This document shows positions 4,579 through 20,067 of a stretch of 32,432 nt of DNA, one piece after another. This DNA comes from a virus (lineage: Duplodnaviria; Heunggongvirae; Uroviricota; Caudoviricetes), in IMG/VR virus record IMGVR_UViG_2541047755_000010. One strand, given 5' to 3'. The notes beneath the pieces were generated by a model. That model saw only the letters and a list, made by a program, of their open reading frames with translations. It had not been told where the DNA came from and made no database searches. A program made the translations under genes and the position numbers. Position 1 is the stretch's first letter; each line of letters begins with the position of its first letter.

Positions 4579-6726
4579 TTGGCTGTTCAATTCGCGTTTC
4601 CGTGGAATGCTCCACGGTCGGCAATAGCCAGTCCATATCTTACCTACGACCAACAGTATCGCCGCGACCGTATGCTCGCGGCTTTGCTGCATGCTAGAAA
4701 GGTGCTTTCCCTCCAGCCCGAGTGTGTACGTTTTGACGTTTATCGCACTGCTGCGGTGCTGGAGCAAAATCAGGGCAGTCAACGAGCCAATGCTTTTTTA
4801 ATAAGCTTCTGCAAAAAGGCATTGCCGCGTTTTGAACTGGTCGCAAAAAAATACGAGTGTACCGGTATTAACAGCAACGTATCAGCCGCTGTTTTCGGTT
4901 GTCATTTCGATACTCAGCTTATGCAATATCTGGCGTCTCGCATGGTCAACATAGTCGCCAGATACAACCGACTCCCGGATATGGCACGCGCCGACATCGA
5001 CCTGCTGGCTGCTGATATCGCCGATTTTATCCGTGCAGAGTTAGTCAACATTGACGATTCTGACATGTGTGAACTGGAGACATTAAATGCCTGGTATATG
5101 CATGCTGGTTTCATCACTCAGCAATTCAGGATAATGCCACCAGAGTGGGAACGGTCGCGGGATAAATATTGGGATCAGGATAAAGTCGCTCCAGCAATTG
5201 CCCGTATGTTTTCGGAAAAATGGTGGCGTGGCCGTCTGCGTCGCATTGCGGCTGCGTGGCGCGAACACCTGCAAATCGCAATCGGAAATGTCAGTAAGAA
5301 AAAACATGTCTACGCGAGTAAAAACTGCGTGACAGACTGGCGTGAACAGAAGCGCCGGACGCGCGAATTTCTCAAAGGTCTGGAGCTTGAAGACGAAGAC
5401 GGCAACCGTATCAGCCTGATTGAAAAATACGATGGTTCAGTCGCTAACTCTGCGATTCGACGCTGTGAGCTTATGACCCGCATTCGTGGGTTTGAAAATA
5501 TCTGCAATGAGCTCGGTTATGTTGGTGAGTTTTACACCCTGACCGCACCGTCTAAATATCACGCCACGACAAAGGCAGGCTACCGTAACACCAAATGGAA
5601 TGGATCCAATCCATCCGATACGCAATGTTATCTCACTGGCCTGTGGGCACGCATTCGCGCAAAACTCCACCGTGAAGACATTCGTATTTTCGGGATCCGC
5701 GTTGCAGAGCCTCACCATGACGGGTGCCCTCACTGGCATATGCTGATGTTTATGCTCCCGGAGGACGTCGATACCGTTCGTGGCATTATTCGGGACTACG
5801 CATGGCAAGAAGATTTTCACGAACTCAAAAGCGATAAAGCCAAAAAAGCACGTTTCCACGCAGAAGCCATTGATCCGGAGAAAGGCAGCGCAACCGGCTA
5901 CGTCGCGAAATACATCTCGAAAAATATCGACGGTTACGCTCTTGATGACGAAACCGATGACGAAAACGGTGAACTGTTGAAAGAGACAGCCCCCGCCGTT
6001 TCAGCATGGGCGGCGCGCTGGCATATTCGTCAGTTTCAGTTTATCGGTGGTGCACCAGTGACTGTTTATCGTGAATTGCGTCGCCTTGCAGATACCGAGA
6101 CCGCGCACGGTCTAAGTGTTGAGTTTGCGGCTGTCCATGATGCCGCCGATGCCGGTGATTGGGCTGGCTATGTTAATGCGCAGGGCGGTCCGTTTGTCCG
6201 TCGCGATGATTTGCAGGTGCGTACGCTTTATGAACCGCGCACCGAGTTTAACCAGTATGGTGAGGAAACTGTCTGCATTCGTGGTGTGTACGACTCCACC
6301 GTTGGTGTTGGCACTCCGATTTTAACCCGGCTCACGCAATGGAAAATTGTTCCGAAGCGTGCCGTTGATTTGGCCGTTGACGTTAAGGACGGCTTCGCCG
6401 TCCCTTGGAGTTCTGTCAATAACTGTACGGGAAGCGAAAGCGATCCACCGGAACTCGATTTATCAAAACCCCTGAGTCGACGTGAAAGGCGAGAGCTGAC
6501 GAACCGAATCAGGAAACCAAAGCCACCTAAGAGGCCGAAATTTATCCACGGAACAGATGAGCAAAGTGCTCCGATAGAAAAAACTATCGACGAGATCCGT
6601 CTGACAACCGGCATTACCATCAGCCGGGGAGAAGCCCTGCACCTGATAGCAGGTGGCAAAAGTTGTATTAACGGTAAATGGTTGCGTGGAACGTCCAAAG
6701 GTGAAATTTTCTCCGCAGCGCCATAG
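4579..6726 (+). CDS. A: rolling-circle replication initiation protein (P2 gpA family)
   Basis: About 715-aa ORF containing the PHHDGCPHWHMLMF metal-binding motif and the YVAKYISKNIDGYAL catalytic-tyrosine region typical of P2 A. The 4579 codon is TTG; the exact start is uncertain. Confidence 0.9.
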   Translation: MAVQFAFPWNAPRSAIASPYLTYDQQYRRDRMLAALLHARKVLSLQPECVRFDVYRTAAVLEQNQGSQRANAFLISFCKKALPRFELVAKKYECTGINSNVSAAVFGCHFDTQLMQYLASRMVNIVARYNRLPDMARADIDLLAADIADFIRAELVNIDDSDMCELETLNAWYMHAGFITQQFRIMPPEWERSRDKYWDQDKVAPAIARMFSEKWWRGRLRRIAAAWREHLQIAIGNVSKKKHVYASKNCVTDWREQKRRTREFLKGLELEDEDGNRISLIEKYDGSVANSAIRRCELMTRIRGFENICNELGYVGEFYTLTAPSKYHATTKAGYRNTKWNGSNPSDTQCYLTGLWARIRAKLHREDIRIFGIRVAEPHHDGCPHWHMLMFMLPEDVDTVRGIIRDYAWQEDFHELKSDKAKKARFHAEAIDPEKGSATGYVAKYISKNIDGYALDDETDDENGELLKETAPAVSAWAARWHIRQFQFIGGAPVTVYRELRRLADTETAHGLSVEFAAVHDAADAGDWAGYVNAQGGPFVRRDDLQVRTLYEPRTEFNQYGEETVCIRGVYDSTVGVGTPILTRLTQWKIVPKRAVDLAVDVKDGFAVPWSSVNNCTGSESDPPELDLSKPLSRRERRELTNRIRKPKPPKRPKFIHGTDEQSAPIEKTIDEIRLTTGITISRGEALHLIAGGKSCINGKWLRGTSKGEIFSAAP

Positions 6727-6875
6727 CTTCAGGCAAAGCCTAGGGAAATCCTTAATCGTGTTGCGGTGCTGGCAGAAACATCAAAACTCACAGGTGATTA
6801 ATTTACATCCATATCATGTACATACAACACCTACCCGATTCACTTTTTCTCTTCCCATCTTTTGCCAATACGTTA

Positions 6876-7098: not shown

Positions 7099-7379
7099 GT
7101 AAACGCGCTGATGCAAAAACTAGATTTTGGCGTCAGCGGGTTTGAACAACGAGCCGCGCGAGGCGTTAGCCTGCCCTTGAAAATCTGACCATGGCCGGCA
7201 CTTTCAAAGTCGTTTTTTATGCCATTTTTCCACGAATTTCCCGTTTTTTAGCTGTGCATGCATCAGGCGCATGATTTTGCATGCGACATGGGTTGCACGT
7301 TCTAGCCGTGTGCCGCCACAGCTGGCGCGTATCCAGAGTGGTCATGCAACTGCATTAAAACCGCCCCATAAAGCGGGCA

Positions 7380-7398
7380 GGCGTGGCGGGGATAGCAT
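7380..7398. other. candidate cos site (cohesive-end sequence)
   Basis: ggcgtggcggggatagcat is 18 of 19 identical to the 186 cohesive-end sequence as I recall it (GGCGTGGCGGGGAAAGCAT; P2 is GGCGAGGCGGGGAAAGCAC). Lies in a non-coding stretch between the tum-like gene and the accessory cassette. Confidence 0.55.
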
Positions 7399-7469
7399 TG
7401 CGCGCCAGAGCAATACAATACATAATTGCTTCGCTCCGTGTATAACATATTCATAGCAAGAGGGATTCT

Positions 7470-8453
7470 ATGGCAACGCAAGATTATAAGAGTAAAATGC
7501 TGCATTATCGCCATGCAATAATGCTTCCTAAAAAGGATGCTCTTTTAACATCAAACCTGCAAGATAGGTTGGCAAACCTTGTGAAAATCAAGGTTCCAAA
7601 TGTTGCTGATAGATTATTCTTCCCTGATGTTCCAGATAATAATGGTAATGTCGCTGCTCACGCCCACATGGTTCTTTCAAATAGCAAAGAAATTCATGGA
7701 ATGTTTTTTGCGGAAATTGTCTATATTGAACCGGGTAGTAGCATTCCTGTTTTCTCTGTTAGCGATTATGCTAAAACAGCTTTAACATACGAGACATTAA
7801 ATTTATCAAGTGGGAATGCTAGAGAGTATTTAGAAAGCATTGCATACATTGGTGTAATTAAGAACCACTTCATAATTCTGCAAAGCAGATCTATTAGAAT
7901 AAAAGATATTGAAAATTATATAAATTTCATACTACAAGACAACCTATCTATTACTGATGATAACTTCATCGTTTTACAGGCAAACAACCTGTCTCTAAAT
8001 ACGGATTTTTTAAAACGTAACATAGTAAAAAATGTTAGCTTAAAGCTGCCTTTAACCTACTATGGAAATAATATTGATGATACAGCTAGTGAGCTATTAA
8101 AAACGCTCGTAGGTGAACATCGAATTAATGAAATGAAGAAAAATGCCATTTTAAATGATGGTTCACCTGACAGGGAATCTCTATCAATTGATATTTCCAT
8201 TGGGTATAAATATAAAGCAAGCGAGTCTGAGCAAGACATGTTGCGTAAAATTACACAAGGCTTGGTTGATAATAGAGATGAAAGCTTAACAATTGAGTTA
8301 AAAGGTGCAGGAATACTCAGGAATGATGAGATTCAACTAAAGGATTCAGTTAATATTGAATACAGCAATGGAATGCTAATTGCTGACAACGTTGCTGAAG
8401 AAATGATTTCATGGTTATTGCGCTTACTAGACACCGGAGTAATTAACCCATGA
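7470..8453 (+). CDS. hypothetical soluble protein (327 aa), first gene of an AT-rich two-gene accessory cassette
   Basis: ATG with an AGAGGGA RBS; strongly AT-rich codon usage unlike the flanking phage genes; no recognisable catalytic motif by eye; its stop overlaps the next gene start (ATGA at 8450-8453). Confidence 0.7.
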   Translation: MATQDYKSKMLHYRHAIMLPKKDALLTSNLQDRLANLVKIKVPNVADRLFFPDVPDNNGNVAAHAHMVLSNSKEIHGMFFAEIVYIEPGSSIPVFSVSDYAKTALTYETLNLSSGNAREYLESIAYIGVIKNHFIILQSRSIRIKDIENYINFILQDNLSITDDNFIVLQANNLSLNTDFLKRNIVKNVSLKLPLTYYGNNIDDTASELLKTLVGEHRINEMKKNAILNDGSPDRESLSIDISIGYKYKASESEQDMLRKITQGLVDNRDESLTIELKGAGILRNDEIQLKDSVNIEYSNGMLIADNVAEEMISWLLRLLDTGVINP

Positions 8454-9136
8454 TAAACAATACGTTACAAACATATGCAAAAAACATAGCAAGCTCAATT
8501 GTAATTGGGCTTATATGTGGTTTTGTTATTGTTTTTGTTTATTCAAAATACTCATTTTTAATTGATTTCGATCCTATAATTTCAAAGGGGATCTCTGTCT
8601 TTAGCGCCGTAATCATTAGCCTCATGTTTAAGCGACTAATTGATGCTGATGATAAAATAAAGGAGTTAGAACTCCCCGCAAACACTCCATCAAGGATAAA
8701 GGATTACTTTGATGATCAAAGAACTTCATACATTCTTGACACCACTAAAAACAAAGTAACCATTGCATATATTTTTACCCTGATTTTGTTTTTTTTGATA
8801 TCACTAACGTTATCAGCGTCAATAACAAAAGTTAATGTTTATTATGGGGTATTTTTTAATTCCGCACTAACGACTACTTGCTTGGTTTTTTCAGTGTATG
8901 CGATACTATTCATTAATAGACAGACGGACATTTCAAGAAACGCAAAGTCATTCTTAAGTGAAATAATAAAAACAGAACAAGAAAGACAAAAATTAATAGA
9001 CACCATAAATAAAAACATTCGTGATGGTGTTAGTAAGGTTAACACTACCGAAATAAGGAAAAACAAAGCATTCAATATTAGAGAGTATGTAGATAATTTA
9101 GAAAAAGAGGTTCCACCACCACAAGATAAGCAATAA
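8450..9136 (+). CDS. hypothetical four-helix membrane protein (228 aa), second gene of the cassette
   Basis: Four hydrophobic helix-length segments (IASSIVIGLICGFVIVFVY, ISVFSAVIISLMF, IAYIFTLILFFLISLTLSA, VYYGVFFNSALTTTCLVFSVYAILFI) followed by a charged coiled-coil-like C-terminal tail; translationally coupled to the upstream gene. Confidence 0.7.
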   Translation: MINNTLQTYAKNIASSIVIGLICGFVIVFVYSKYSFLIDFDPIISKGISVFSAVIISLMFKRLIDADDKIKELELPANTPSRIKDYFDDQRTSYILDTTKNKVTIAYIFTLILFFLISLTLSASITKVNVYYGVFFNSALTTTCLVFSVYAILFINRQTDISRNAKSFLSEIIKTEQERQKLIDTINKNIRDGVSKVNTTEIRKNKAFNIREYVDNLEKEVPPPQDKQ

Positions 9137-9144
9137 AACATTTT

Positions 9145-9180
9145 CATCCAGAGTCATTATTATAATGGACTCTGGATTTT
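9145..9180. terminator. bidirectional rho-independent terminator between the cassette and the portal gene
   Basis: ccagagtc…gactctgg stem followed by attttttg; sits between convergent genes (cassette on plus, Q on minus). Confidence 0.7.
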
Positions 9181-9192
9181 TTGCATTCATAC

Positions 9193-10230
9193 TTAATCAA
9201 AGGTATACGGCTTGAACTTAATTAAATTATCACCAAACCAATGATTTAATTCACGAATCCTATCTTGCAATGGAGTTAATTCATTGCGAACAAATACTTT
9301 TGCCACTTTCTCAATATCGCCCACTGAGCCGACGTTCTCAGGCTTGCCGCCCATCAACTGGAACGGGATGCGGTGCGCGTCGAGCAGGTCAGCGGCGCTG
9401 ACTTTCTTGATATTAAAAAAATCATCCTTCGTCGCGACTTCGCTCAGCGGCACAATTTTAATCCCATCCGGTTTACCGTGCGGTGCGTAGAAAAACAGAT
9501 TCTTAAAATTGCCGAGCCCTTTCGAGTCGCGCATCGCCTTTCGCAACGCTTCGACGTCAGTGCTGTTCTGAGCGGCATCGGTCACATACATGATGTACCC
9601 TGCGTGCGCGCCGTTCTGGTAATACTTGCGACGAAACAGTGTCGCTGACTCATTCAGCCAGGCTGAATTGAGTGCGCTCAGGTATTCCGGCATCCCGTAC
9701 AGCTCCTGATTAATATCAGGCTCAAGCAGGTGGAAGACGGAACCGGGCGAAAACTGGTGCGGTTGCGTGTAGGACTGGATATACCAGTACACGTCATCAT
9801 CAACGCCACGACGGGTATATTTGGCCGGTGAGGTCTCCAGCTTTAGCGGCTTGCCAGTCAGACCGCGACGCTCTTCGAGAAAGGCGTTGCCAAATACCAG
9901 ATAATCGAGCACGAACCGGCTGAAATCCTGACGCGATAACAGCGGGTGCGGGATGTAGGTCGACACCAGAATATTACGCTTCACGTAAATCGGTGAGCTG
10001 TGATGAACGGCGGCGCGCATGCTCTTCGCCAGCCCGGAGAAGCTCACCGGCGGCTCATACCATTGGCCGTTGTCGATGCACTCCACATAATCGAGAATGT
10101 CGCGGCGATCGAGTACCGGCGTCGGCTCGCCAAAGGTGAATGCCTCCATGCTCTGTGCCGATGCGGCGGTGTGACTTTGGGGGCGCGGCTGCTGTCGCTT
10201 GTTGTTGCGATTCTTGCTCATTAGTTCCAC
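9193..10230 (-). CDS. Q: portal protein (P2 gpQ family)
   Basis: 345-aa ORF immediately downstream of and overlapping the terminase large subunit gene, in the P2 Q-P arrangement; size matches P2 Q. Confidence 0.85.
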   Translation of the reverse strand: MELMSKNRNNKRQQPRPQSHTAASAQSMEAFTFGEPTPVLDRRDILDYVECIDNGQWYEPPVSFSGLAKSMRAAVHHSSPIYVKRNILVSTYIPHPLLSRQDFSRFVLDYLVFGNAFLEERRGLTGKPLKLETSPAKYTRRGVDDDVYWYIQSYTQPHQFSPGSVFHLLEPDINQELYGMPEYLSALNSAWLNESATLFRRKYYQNGAHAGYIMYVTDAAQNSTDVEALRKAMRDSKGLGNFKNLFFYAPHGKPDGIKIVPLSEVATKDDFFNIKKVSAADLLDAHRIPFQLMGGKPENVGSVGDIEKVAKVFVRNELTPLQDRIRELNHWFGDNLIKFKPYTFD

Positions 10231-17508: not shown

Positions 17509-17968
17509 CTTTAAACCCTTTGACGATACGCTCACGGGGCTGATAGCAGCGCTGTCTCCTGCCGCCCGTCGCAGAATGGCCGCAGATATCGCTAAGACCC
17601 TGCGAGCCCGTCAACAGCGCCGGATTAAAATGCAGAAAGCCCCGGACGGGACACCTTACGCCGCCCGAAAACGCCAGCCGGTAAAAGCCAAAACAGGCCG
17701 GGTTAAGCGGGAAATGTTCGCTAAGCTCCGCACCAGTCGCTTTATGAAAGCCACAGCGGGGAATGACTCGGCGGTCGTGGAATTTACCGGCAAGGTACAA
17801 CGGATGGCGAATGTGCATCAGTACGGTCTCAAAGATAAGCCTGGGCGAAACAGTGCGCCGGTACAGTATGACGCCCGAATGCTTATCGGGTTTGATCATG
17901 AATCAAAAAATATGATTCATGACATAATTATGGTTTCTTTAGCTGAGGCGGCTAGATCTATTGATTGA
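17501..17968 (+). CDS. S: tail completion protein (P2 gpS family); the 3' end is AT-rich and contains an inverted repeat
   Basis: 155-aa ORF following R. The last ~25 codons shift to AT-rich sequence and include the 10-bp inverted repeat tcatgaatca/tgattcatga (17896-17922). Confidence 0.8.
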   Translation: MNDFKPFDDTLTGLIAALSPAARRRMAADIAKTLRARQQRRIKMQKAPDGTPYAARKRQPVKAKTGRVKREMFAKLRTSRFMKATAGNDSAVVEFTGKVQRMANVHQYGLKDKPGRNSAPVQYDARMLIGFDHESKNMIHDIIMVSLAEAARSID

Positions 17969-18005
17969 TTTTATGTATTTTATTTTCTATACAAGTGAGG
18001 ATGTT

Positions 18006-19349
18006 ATGGAAAATAAAAAATATCAAGTATTTGTGAGCTCTACATACGTCGATTTAATTGATGCTCGCAAAAAAATCATAGAAACGGTCCTTAGTTTATA
18101 CCACTTTCCAGTTGGCATGGAGATGTTTAGCGCTGATGACTCTGAGCAGTGGGATATAATAAAGGAGACTATTGATGCTAGTGATTATTATGTGATTATC
18201 ATTGGGCATAAGTATGGGTCCGTTTCTAAAGATGGTATTAGCTATACTGAAATGGAATATAACTATGCTAAATCATTAAATATACCGGTGTTGGCTTTTA
18301 TTAGAGGGAGGGACGTTTTAACAAAACCACATGAACGAGAAAGTGACCCTCAAAAAGAAAAGCAACTAAATGCTTTTATTGAAAAAGCTAAAGCTAACAA
18401 AATGTGTGATTTTTGGGAGACAATTGATGAGTTAGCGACGAAGGTTGCTATCGCCTTACCAAAAGTAATGCGACGAAATCCACGAATAGGATGGGTGCGC
18501 GGTGACCAGGTCGCATCTAAAGAGATTACCGCCGAGTTGGCTGAGCTATCTAATGAAAATAGAAAATTAAGGGAAAAAGTCCGCGAATATGAAAGCCAAT
18601 TACATAGCGATGCACCTCAATTAGAGCTGAGCATGATTGATAATGACTTAGCTTTGACGGTGGATGTGGAGTCGACTTATCAGGATTACCTTCCACAACT
18701 ATGCAAGGAAGCGGTACCTCTTGAGTTGAAGGACACTATCACCATTGATGAGATTGAATCATATAACTCTTCACTGCCTACTGATAAAGATGTGGATTTA
18801 TATAATAAAAAAATGAGATTGCACTGTAATTACAAAAACAATGCAATTACAGTGAAGCCCGTTTTAAGAAATAATGGGAGGACTTTTGCGTCAAATGTTT
18901 ATGTTGAGATTGATTTTCCTGAATTCCTAATAGTGCTTAAAGGTTCTAATGAAGACTTATTTATAAAAGAGCCGAAATTAAAAATCCCTGAGTCCCCAAT
19001 AAGTAAGCATAAAAAAAGACTCAGTGCTATAATGTCACTCGAAAATTTTAGGATGGGTATTTTTGATGATACATCGATGGTAATGGCTAAACCTCATTTC
19101 GAAGTGCCAGCAATAATTAAACGGATGGCTGATTTAGGAACAGTTAACCAAGATGAGTGGGTCATGAAAGAGGACCATAAAATCACGTTGCGTGCGAAAA
19201 AAGTGTTACAGAGCTTAACTGTTGAGTATGAGGAAATAGTCATCATTCCCTTAACGATTGGCTCTGGAGTTATTAATTTTAAAATTATATGTGAGCAATT
19301 GAAGGAGCCTGTTGTTTTTTCTCGTCAGGTTACAGTTACCCCAAGCTAG
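18006..19349 (+). CDS. AT-rich accessory protein (447 aa) with a DUF4062/TIR-like N-terminal domain, a coiled-coil linker and an uncharacterised C-terminal domain
   Basis: ATG at 18006 preceded by GAGGA. N-terminus KYQVFVSSTYVDLIDARKK…YYVIIIGHKYGSV…IPVLAFIRG resembles the DUF4062/TIR-like N-terminal pattern as I recall it. Coiled coil around ELAELSNENRKLREKVREYESQL. Sits between S and V, where P2 carries orf30. Confidence 0.7.
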   Translation: MENKKYQVFVSSTYVDLIDARKKIIETVLSLYHFPVGMEMFSADDSEQWDIIKETIDASDYYVIIIGHKYGSVSKDGISYTEMEYNYAKSLNIPVLAFIRGRDVLTKPHERESDPQKEKQLNAFIEKAKANKMCDFWETIDELATKVAIALPKVMRRNPRIGWVRGDQVASKEITAELAELSNENRKLREKVREYESQLHSDAPQLELSMIDNDLALTVDVESTYQDYLPQLCKEAVPLELKDTITIDEIESYNSSLPTDKDVDLYNKKMRLHCNYKNNAITVKPVLRNNGRTFASNVYVEIDFPEFLIVLKGSNEDLFIKEPKLKIPESPISKHKKRLSAIMSLENFRMGIFDDTSMVMAKPHFEVPAIIKRMADLGTVNQDEWVMKEDHKITLRAKKVLQSLTVEYEEIVIIPLTIGSGVINFKIICEQLKEPVVFSRQVTVTPS

Positions 19350-19425
19350 TTTTTGTATGTTGTGCCATATCTGGTAAAACCCGCATTAATTGCCGTCCAG
19401 AGCACCGGGCGGCATCCTTCCTTGT

Positions 19426-20067
19426 ATGAATACTCGCGCAACTCTTCAGGACGCTTTACGCCTCCTTCGCAACCTGATACGTACCGGCGTCGTCGTCGAA
19501 GTTGACCTCGATGACGGGCGCTGTCGCGTCCAGACTGGCGGCATTGTTACCGACTGGCTTCAGTGGCTGACCACACGCGCCGGTCGTTCACGTGTCTGGT
19601 GGGCTCCGTCTGTGGGCGAGCAGGTTTTACTGCTGGCCGTGGGTGGTGAACTCGACACCGCTTTTGTGCTGCCCGGCATTTTTTCGGATGACCACCCCGC
19701 GCCGTCGGCGTCGGCTGATGCTTTTCACATCACCTTTCCTGATGGGGCTGTTATCGAGTACGAGCCGGAGACCGGCGCGCTGACCGTGAGCGGCATTAAA
19801 ACCGCAGACGTTACGGCGTCGGATTCCATCACCGCGACGGTACCGCTGGTGACGGTGAAAGCCGAGACCCGCATCACCCTCGATACACCGGAAGTGGTCT
19901 GCACCAACAAACTGACGACGGCGACGCTTGAGGTACAACAAGGCGGCACCATGCGCGGAAACATCGAACACACCGACGGTACGTTTAAATCCAACGGCGT
20001 TCAGGTCGACAGCCACGGTCACGGCGGTGTGCAAAGAGGTGGAGCCTGGACGGAGGGCACGAAATGA
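19426..20067 (+). CDS. V: baseplate spike protein (P2 gpV family)
   Basis: 213 aa from the ATG at 19426; size and position match P2 V (211 aa). Confidence 0.85.
   Translation: MNTRATLQDALRLLRNLIRTGVVVEVDLDDGRCRVQTGGIVTDWLQWLTTRAGRSRVWWAPSVGEQVLLLAVGGELDTAFVLPGIFSDDHPAPSASADAFHITFPDGAVIEYEPETGALTVSGIKTADVTASDSITATVPLVTVKAETRITLDTPEVVCTNKLTTATLEVQQGGTMRGNIEHTDGTFKSNGVQVDSHGHGGVQRGGAWTEGTK

Follow-up and report, generated by a model that had tools for sequence, protein, structure and literature searches.

The window analysed here, a 32,432-nucleotide stretch deposited as IMG/VR record IMGVR_UViG_2541047755_000010, is a 186/P2-like prophage with genes for an integrase, CI, CII, Fil, the replication endonuclease A, portal Q and terminase P, together with cos and with capsid, lysis and tail genes. 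We examined a compact cassette of two open reading frames (ORFs) at positions 7470–9136 of this prophage, whose predicted products suggest a phage-exclusion system of the type represented by lambda RexAB. Gene 1 (7470–8453, + strand) encodes a 327-amino acid (aa) protein (WP_000235290) that is predicted to be soluble and to adopt a RexA-like fold, and is a putative cytosolic sensor or activator; gene 2 (8450–9136, + strand) encodes a 228-aa protein (WP_000609549) that is predicted to reside in the inner membrane with four transmembrane (TM) helices, and is a putative RexB-like effector. An initial annotation of the region, made from the nucleotide letters alone, had described two intact ORFs on the strand opposite to the portal and terminase genes, with an AT-rich composition set against a high-GC backbone. 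The coordinates and base composition bear this out: both ORFs are intact and run against the portal gene (9193–10230, − strand) and the terminase gene, and the GC content is 0.31–0.34 across positions 7501–9000, as opposed to 0.54–0.61 in the structural genes.

The two genes are joined by an ATGA overlap (8450–8453, + strand) in which the stop codon of gene 1 coincides with the start codon of gene 2, an arrangement indicative of translational coupling. Overlaps of 4–40 nucleotides (nt) between gene 1 and its partner are also found at the related loci L002, L005, L007 and L010–L013 and in Stx2a_1447. A ribosome-binding site (GAGGG; 7460–7464, + strand) is positioned 5 nt 5′ of the ATG of gene 1, and the cassette is followed by an intrinsic terminator (9146–9183, + strand) comprising a hairpin with a 14-basepair stem (9146–9177) and then U6. 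The hairpin was not picked up by a consensus scan; its folding energy is −15.9 kcal/mol (z = −5.46), and none of 200 shuffled sequences folds equally well. Both the overlap and a strong terminator had been described in the initial annotation, and both are present.

At the other end of the cassette, the cos core GGCGTGGCGGGGATAGCAT (7381–7399, strand not assigned) forms the upstream border of the accessory locus. The same core, with its flanks, is found in the P4/P2-like cloned sequences in Table S2 of Rousset et al. 2022, the surrounding region (7300–7408) is conserved in more than 1000 E. coli prophages and at the ends of P2-like phage records, and a regular-expression search located the core at the equivalent place in L001, L021 and L022 and in the P4-like loci L005 and L006. 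The position of the core therefore places the cassette literally between cos and the portal gene Q, as had been proposed. A further ORF of 60 aa (WP_000232871; 6916–7098, + strand) is located between gene A and cos and is listed together with the cassette in the tables of Rousset et al. We considered this ORF as a third component and rejected it, since it lies beyond cos and is missing from another P2-like phage (L022) that carries the cassette at 99% (gene 1) and 93% (gene 2) identity; it is probably part of the phage backbone and not of the system.

Comparison with the L022 copy revealed 24 synonymous and 2 non-synonymous differences in gene 1 (ratio of non-synonymous to synonymous substitution rates, dN/dS, of 0.02), and 32.5 synonymous and 15.5 non-synonymous differences in gene 2 (dN/dS of 0.11). 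Both genes are under purifying selection, and the pair is kept down to about 20% identity. The low dN/dS values and this deep conservation together indicate that the ORFs are real genes rather than chance reading frames. Across loci L022–L024, L002 and L005, the membrane partner diverges roughly twice as fast as gene 1 (93 versus 99% identity, 31 versus 63%, 23 versus 48%, and undetectable versus 40%).

Neither protein matched any Pfam, NCBIfam or PADLOC v2 model, in agreement with the initial annotation, which had been unable to place either in a named family. The sole profile assignment of gene 1 is to PHROG 3482 (function unknown), and RefSeq calls both proteins hypothetical. Searching with a profile against the sequences of the PDB returned no match even at E ≤ 10. 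A word-indexed search identified only 17 close relatives of gene 1 (38–83% identity); an exhaustive hidden Markov model (HMM) search built from the alignment of those relatives returned 502 clusters (counted at 50% identity) at E ≤ 1e-3, with 276 at E ≤ 1e-10, and nearly all are 315–360 aa in length. Few of the family members carry source names, and those are named hypothetical. When 121 sampled members of the gene 1 family were scanned, none matched the Pfam RexA model, and three gave isolated weak matches to unrelated families. A separate search of genome contigs for related loci gave 81 pattern matches, none of which was confirmed.

The residues that are near-invariant across the gene 1 family (Y13, L30, R48, G89, N132, E148 and W315) form no recognised catalytic motif. 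On this basis we rejected an enzymatic effector in gene 1, and the earlier statement that the protein lacks a visible enzymatic motif is upheld. Hydropathy analysis likewise revealed no hydrophobic (TM) segments in the protein. Structure prediction, which had been suggested as a check, produced a model with a RexA-like fold. In the model, seven N-terminal strands are followed by a middle domain with four helices and then by a long, returning C-terminal helix. RexA itself is known to be an RdgC-like dimer whose globular domain, a seven-stranded sheet that the C-terminal helix closes, is split by a beta/four-helix dimerisation domain. The features that define the RexA structure (PDB 8TWQ), namely the split globular beta-sheet domain, the inserted domain and the returning C-terminal helix, are all recognisable in the predicted model of gene 1.

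The hydropathy profile of gene 2 contains four peaks (at approximately residues 13–31, 42–60, 103–121 and 137–155) in a 2 + 2 arrangement, and the Phobius run reported in Table S5B of Rousset et al. also gives ‘4 TM’ for this protein. These results sustain the four hydrophobic helices of the initial annotation, and gene 2 also has a charged tail of approximately 73 aa. The even number of TM segments and the distribution of charge suggest that both termini, as well as a charged loop of approximately 42 aa between TM2 and TM3 (8630–8755, + strand), are cytoplasmic. The charged C-terminal tail (8915–9133, + strand) contains the sequence E176-x2-R179-x2-L182-I183 (nt 8975–8998), and no motif other than this E-x2-R-x2-L-I/L pattern is shared throughout the partner family, in which R179 and L182 are nearly invariant among 16 partners at 13–26% identity. 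Since the charged loop would lie on the same, presumably cytoplasmic, side of the membrane as the ExxRxxLI tail, the two are obvious candidates for contact surfaces.

The downstream neighbour of gene 1 in every inspected locus is a protein of 165–230 aa that usually overlaps it, and the 2 + 2 TM layout is kept in all 13 partners examined except that of phage SfIV. In SfIV (L018, 3501–4324) an IS1 element cuts the membrane partner to 108 aa (three TM segments) and the soluble gene is intact, representing a natural ‘gene 2 knockout’.

The interval in which the cassette resides is already recognised as a site of defence cargo. It corresponds to gpA-cos-gpQ, which Rousset et al. 2022 established as a hotspot for defence genes and where P2 itself carries old and tin, in line with what the initial annotation says of this locus; the present cassette, as variable genes between A and Q that adjoin cos, is cargo of that hotspot. 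The exact pair is system 72 of their Table S5B, where it is counted 58 times, is given no domain names and bears the comment ‘4 TM’. System 72 was not among the systems that they cloned and tested, so that the pair was catalogued there and neither interpreted nor tested. For the corresponding P4 hotspot, a 2026 preprint reports that six of eight randomly chosen unknown loci were active.

Of 5426 complete E. coli genomes, 13 carry the exact cassette, in each case at this site, and no record of a cultured phage contains it. Related cassettes occupy the corresponding cos-Q site in L022–L024, P2-like phages with A genes of just 34–37% identity, and they are also found well beyond this group. An Enterobacter P4-like satellite carries the cassette in its psu-integrase hotspot, with cos approximately 400 nt upstream, and in Aeromonas hydrophila (L002; CP053859, 1–7856) the cassette lies at the end of a satellite resembling P4 or a capsid-forming phage-inducible chromosomal island (cfPICI), with P2-type capsid genes. 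The gene content of the Aeromonas element comprises an integrase, Ogr/Delta, a GPO-N scaffold-like gene, a P2-type major capsid gene and a DUF927 primase. Further contexts include a Vibrio vulnificus prophage, a Mu-like prophage of Guyparkeria, and a phage-plasmid-like contig with ParAB, HicAB and tail genes. In Shiga toxin (Stx) 2a phages and in SfIV, the family is located at the accessory site between Q and the stx or lysis genes.

The most telling placements are those of two distant members of the family, in the lambdoid phage Perceval (L020, 2692–5057) and in Acinetobacter phage phi1_092021 (L017, 2552–5008). Both members score 298–360 bits against the gene 1 family HMM and are found directly after cI, on the same strand and with a four-TM partner, a position that in lambda is taken by rexA-rexB. 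GenBank gives the phi1_092021 homologue the label ‘DefenseFinder protein’, a hint that current DefenseFinder may already cover part of the wider family.

The resemblance of the cassette to lambda RexAB thus lies in the predicted RexA-like fold of gene 1, in the four TM helices that gene 2 shares with RexB, and in the arrangement of the pair, in which the next gene downstream, in the same orientation, encodes a small four-TM inner-membrane partner. In length, gene 1 exceeds lambda RexA by 48 aa, and its middle domain is bigger. The genomic position also differs: lambda rexAB is located in the immunity region, whereas the pair in the window, with its overlapping (ATGA) genes, is in the P2 cos-Q hotspot approximately 4.6 kb from CI, and hence is neither adjacent to cI nor part of the immunity region. 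Some accepted Rex-like systems are likewise located outside the cI-adjacent immunity region. Rex systems are sensitive to the A:B ratio, and the ATGA coupling of the present pair is consistent with stoichiometric control without being proof of it.

The Rex-like systems described to date number only about five, and two examples that are hidden at the sequence level were validated within the last two years. The pair RexABpp from Pseudomonas putida prophage P1 (PP_5643/PP_5644; Sci Rep 2026, PMC12894663), which we compared with the present family by description and not by sequence, includes a RexApp protein identified by HHpred as a RexA homologue (98% probability), whereas this family gives no signal with the profile tools used here. 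Sucellos, from a chromosomal integron of Vibrio cholerae (SclA/SclB; 10.1101/2024.07.02.601686), is described as RexAB-like in structure and unmatched by Pfam domains; the likeness is again one of description, and Sucellos may or may not belong to the same sequence family. Both of its genes are needed, SclB is a predicted transmembrane pore, the phenotype is abortive, and homologues often occur in prophages (10.1101/2024.07.02.601686). A tblastn search with two members of the present family against plasmid and phage collections yielded no Vibrio cholerae copy. The actinobacteriophage pairs Sbash gp30/31, CarolAnn gp44/43 and Butters gp30/31, which come from hosts of another phylum and were also compared by description, similarly combine a cytosolic RexA-like protein with a membrane protein, are expressed from the prophage and exclude heterologous phages. 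In Butters the roles are reversed, with the RexA-like gp30 acting as effector and the membrane protein gp31 only restraining it.

Three other systems were considered as possible identities for the pair and rejected. Kiwa is similar in that it comprises two genes, for a four-TM protein (KwaA) and a soluble protein of approximately 320 aa (KwaB, with DUF4868), and it also occurs in P2 hotspots; the pair gives no PADLOC or Pfam match to it and the gene order is opposite. Rst_Hydrolase-3TM, which pairs a HAD-like hydrolase with a 3-TM protein, was rejected since the present pair contains no HAD or other hydrolase domain, differs in sequence from the entries of Table S2A and has a RexA-like predicted fold. 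Damona was tried and likewise rejected.

Taken together, the predicted fold, the membrane partner and the genomic contexts point to a distant relative of RexAB as the most likely identity of the pair, with a function that we infer from that relationship. On balance, we consider it probable that the cassette represents a RexAB-type two-component phage-exclusion (abortive-infection) cargo in the cos-proximal hotspot of this 186/P2-like prophage; the layout of soluble sensor and membrane effector that the initial annotation had suggested is supported in silico by the same predictions. Reasoning from lambda RexAB, Sbash, CarolAnn, RexABpp and Sucellos, we propose that the lysogen would make both proteins in a proportion set by the ATGA coupling. 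Upon infection by another phage, the RexA-like protein (probably as a dimer) would sense an infection-specific protein or DNA-protein intermediate and then engage the cytoplasmic loop or tail of its membrane partner, which in turn would oligomerise or open as a channel or pore. The membrane would then depolarise, ATP would fall and growth would stop, such that the cycle of the infecting phage would not be completed.

Several observations weigh against this assignment. The RexA models (Pfam PF15969 and PADLOC PDLC02339) and RexB models (PF15968 and PDLC02340) do not match the pair or the 121 sampled family members; as a positive control, lambda RexA matched its models at E 1e-97 and 1e-108 and lambda RexB matched its own at 1e-61 to 1e-92. 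Aligning the family profiles by hhalign with lambda RexA, a four-sequence RexA alignment and a small RexB alignment gave probabilities below 1%, a weak negative because the RexA and RexB alignments are thin (four phages), and the gene 1 family HMM scores RexA proteins at approximately −1 bit. The fold match spans about half of the gene 1 protein. In addition, gene 1 is acidic (isoelectric point, pI, of 5.3) and RexA basic (pI 8.6), and DNA binding may therefore not be conserved; the RexA paper reports that DNA binding by RexA is not strictly needed for exclusion.

The membrane partner presents further differences. A bundle of four TM helices is a generic feature, and gene 2 (228 aa) is 84 aa (60%) longer than lambda RexB (144 aa), with a 42-aa charged loop where RexB has approximately 17 aa between TM2 and TM3, and with a 73-aa tail and ExxRxxLI motif that RexB lacks. 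No promoter was called by a consensus scan upstream of gene 1. We note a weak, tentative −10-like element, TGTATAAC (7439–7446, + strand), as a candidate promoter of the cassette, and alignment of the upstream regions from six contexts, among them the window, L023 and L007, revealed only a weak TTGTAt.A-like motif in common, 25–45 nt before the ATG. Without a confident promoter, expression of the cassette in the lysogen is only assumed. Given a shared fold and no signal at the level of sequence, we therefore classify the cassette as RexAB-like in its presumed working and its fold, and not as a member of the Pfam RexA or RexB families.

The main rival to a RexAB-type exclusion system with a membrane effector, and one that we judge unlikely, is a defence of reversed polarity, in which the membrane protein would be a sensor or anchor that detects attachment or injection by a phage, or that sequesters its soluble partner, and the released RexA-fold protein would be the effector, for instance through binding of phage DNA or a block to replication. 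The roles of gp30 and gp31 in Butters provide a precedent for this arrangement, and the faster divergence of gene 2 (31 versus 63%, and 23 versus 48%) might suit contact with variable phage parts. A similar logic is offered by Kiwa, in which KwaA tetramers and KwaB dimers form one membrane supercomplex that senses phage-induced membrane changes. It is distinctly improbable, in our assessment, that the cassette instead represents non-defence cargo (for instance an accessory gene for virulence or host fitness) or cargo that has fallen silent. No confident promoter precedes it, only the 13 E. coli genomes mentioned above carry it, and AT-rich DNA is often silenced by H-NS; such cargo would nonetheless fit poorly with purifying selection on both genes, with the RexA fold, and with repeated capture in hotspots whose tested cargo is mostly defensive.

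We give still less credence to a non-abortive form of superinfection exclusion (Sie) or membrane remodelling, in which the membrane protein would block DNA entry or a receptor and the soluble protein would act as its chaperone or regulator. Sie-type inner-membrane proteins are frequent in prophage accessory loci, and the location and AT-richness of the cassette would suit any lysogenic-conversion gene, but this explanation does not account for the RexA fold of gene 1, for the strict coupling of two genes over approximately 500 clusters, or for occupation of the cI-adjacent rexAB slot. Least probable of all appears to be a role in the prophage's own life cycle, as a modulator of the switch from lysogeny to lysis or as an addiction or toxin–antitoxin-like stabiliser. 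Lambda RexA is reported to bias the bistable switch toward lysis independently of RexB, some members of the family adjoin cI, and a membrane toxin with a soluble partner recalls some toxin–antitoxin layouts; the cassette is, however, far from any immunity region in the window, as it is in the P4, Mu-like and Stx-phage contexts. It moves among elements with unrelated repressors and replication modules, and an element-independent function is therefore favoured.

Other features of the prophage were observed in the course of this analysis. In strain PCN033, whose prophage is identical, RefSeq lists gene A (4579–6801 of the window, + strand) as a pseudogene interrupted by an internal stop; the corresponding ORF in the window stops at 6726, and replication of the prophage may be defective. 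Among the tail genes, just before the baseplate spike gene V (19390–20067), lies a second AT-rich island (GC content approximately 0.37; 17961–19349, + strand). Its 462-aa ORF has a DUF4062 domain at the N-terminus (Pfam E 1.9e-28) and no PADLOC match. DUF4062 is known from conflict systems as a TIR-like domain, and this ORF resembles a further candidate for a defence gene, at a second variable site of the prophage. The third AT-rich stretch is a gene (GC content 0.36–0.38; 203–1132, − strand) that encodes the 309-aa hypothetical protein WP_001294850 and overlaps the start of the integrase gene (1122–2159) at the attachment-site end; this protein has no Pfam match and a negligible PADLOC match.

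RexAB-type systems as a kind are already known, as is the listing of this pair as system 72. What appears to be new is the RexAB-type assignment of a large unannotated family, together with the findings that other phages carry it in the slot next to cI and that it moves among hotspots, and the extended architecture of its membrane partner. A broader proposal, which we regard as possible and advance tentatively, is that Rex-type exclusion constitutes a large, sequence-hidden superfamily (at least 500 unannotated clusters at 50% identity) in the form of a self-contained cassette that hops among P2-like, P4-like, Mu-like, lambdoid and Stx phages and phage-plasmids, and whose partner in the present branch has gained a loop and an ExxRxxLI tail, perhaps as a docking site for the RexA-like protein. 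If that is true, docking through ExxRxxLI would offer a workable route into the 70-year-old problem of how RexB is activated by RexA, and the E. coli cassette, with its length of 1.7 kb, its tractable host and its distinctive tail motif, is a convenient model for gating of the RexA type. Confirmation of the RexAB-type assignment would provide a mechanism class for one ‘all-hypothetical’ type of P2-hotspot cargo and for approximately 500 clusters missed by Pfam, NCBIfam and PADLOC v2. It would also mean that the oldest known abortive-infection system has far more relatives than sequence models suggest, including the cI-adjacent occupants found in other lambdoid phages.

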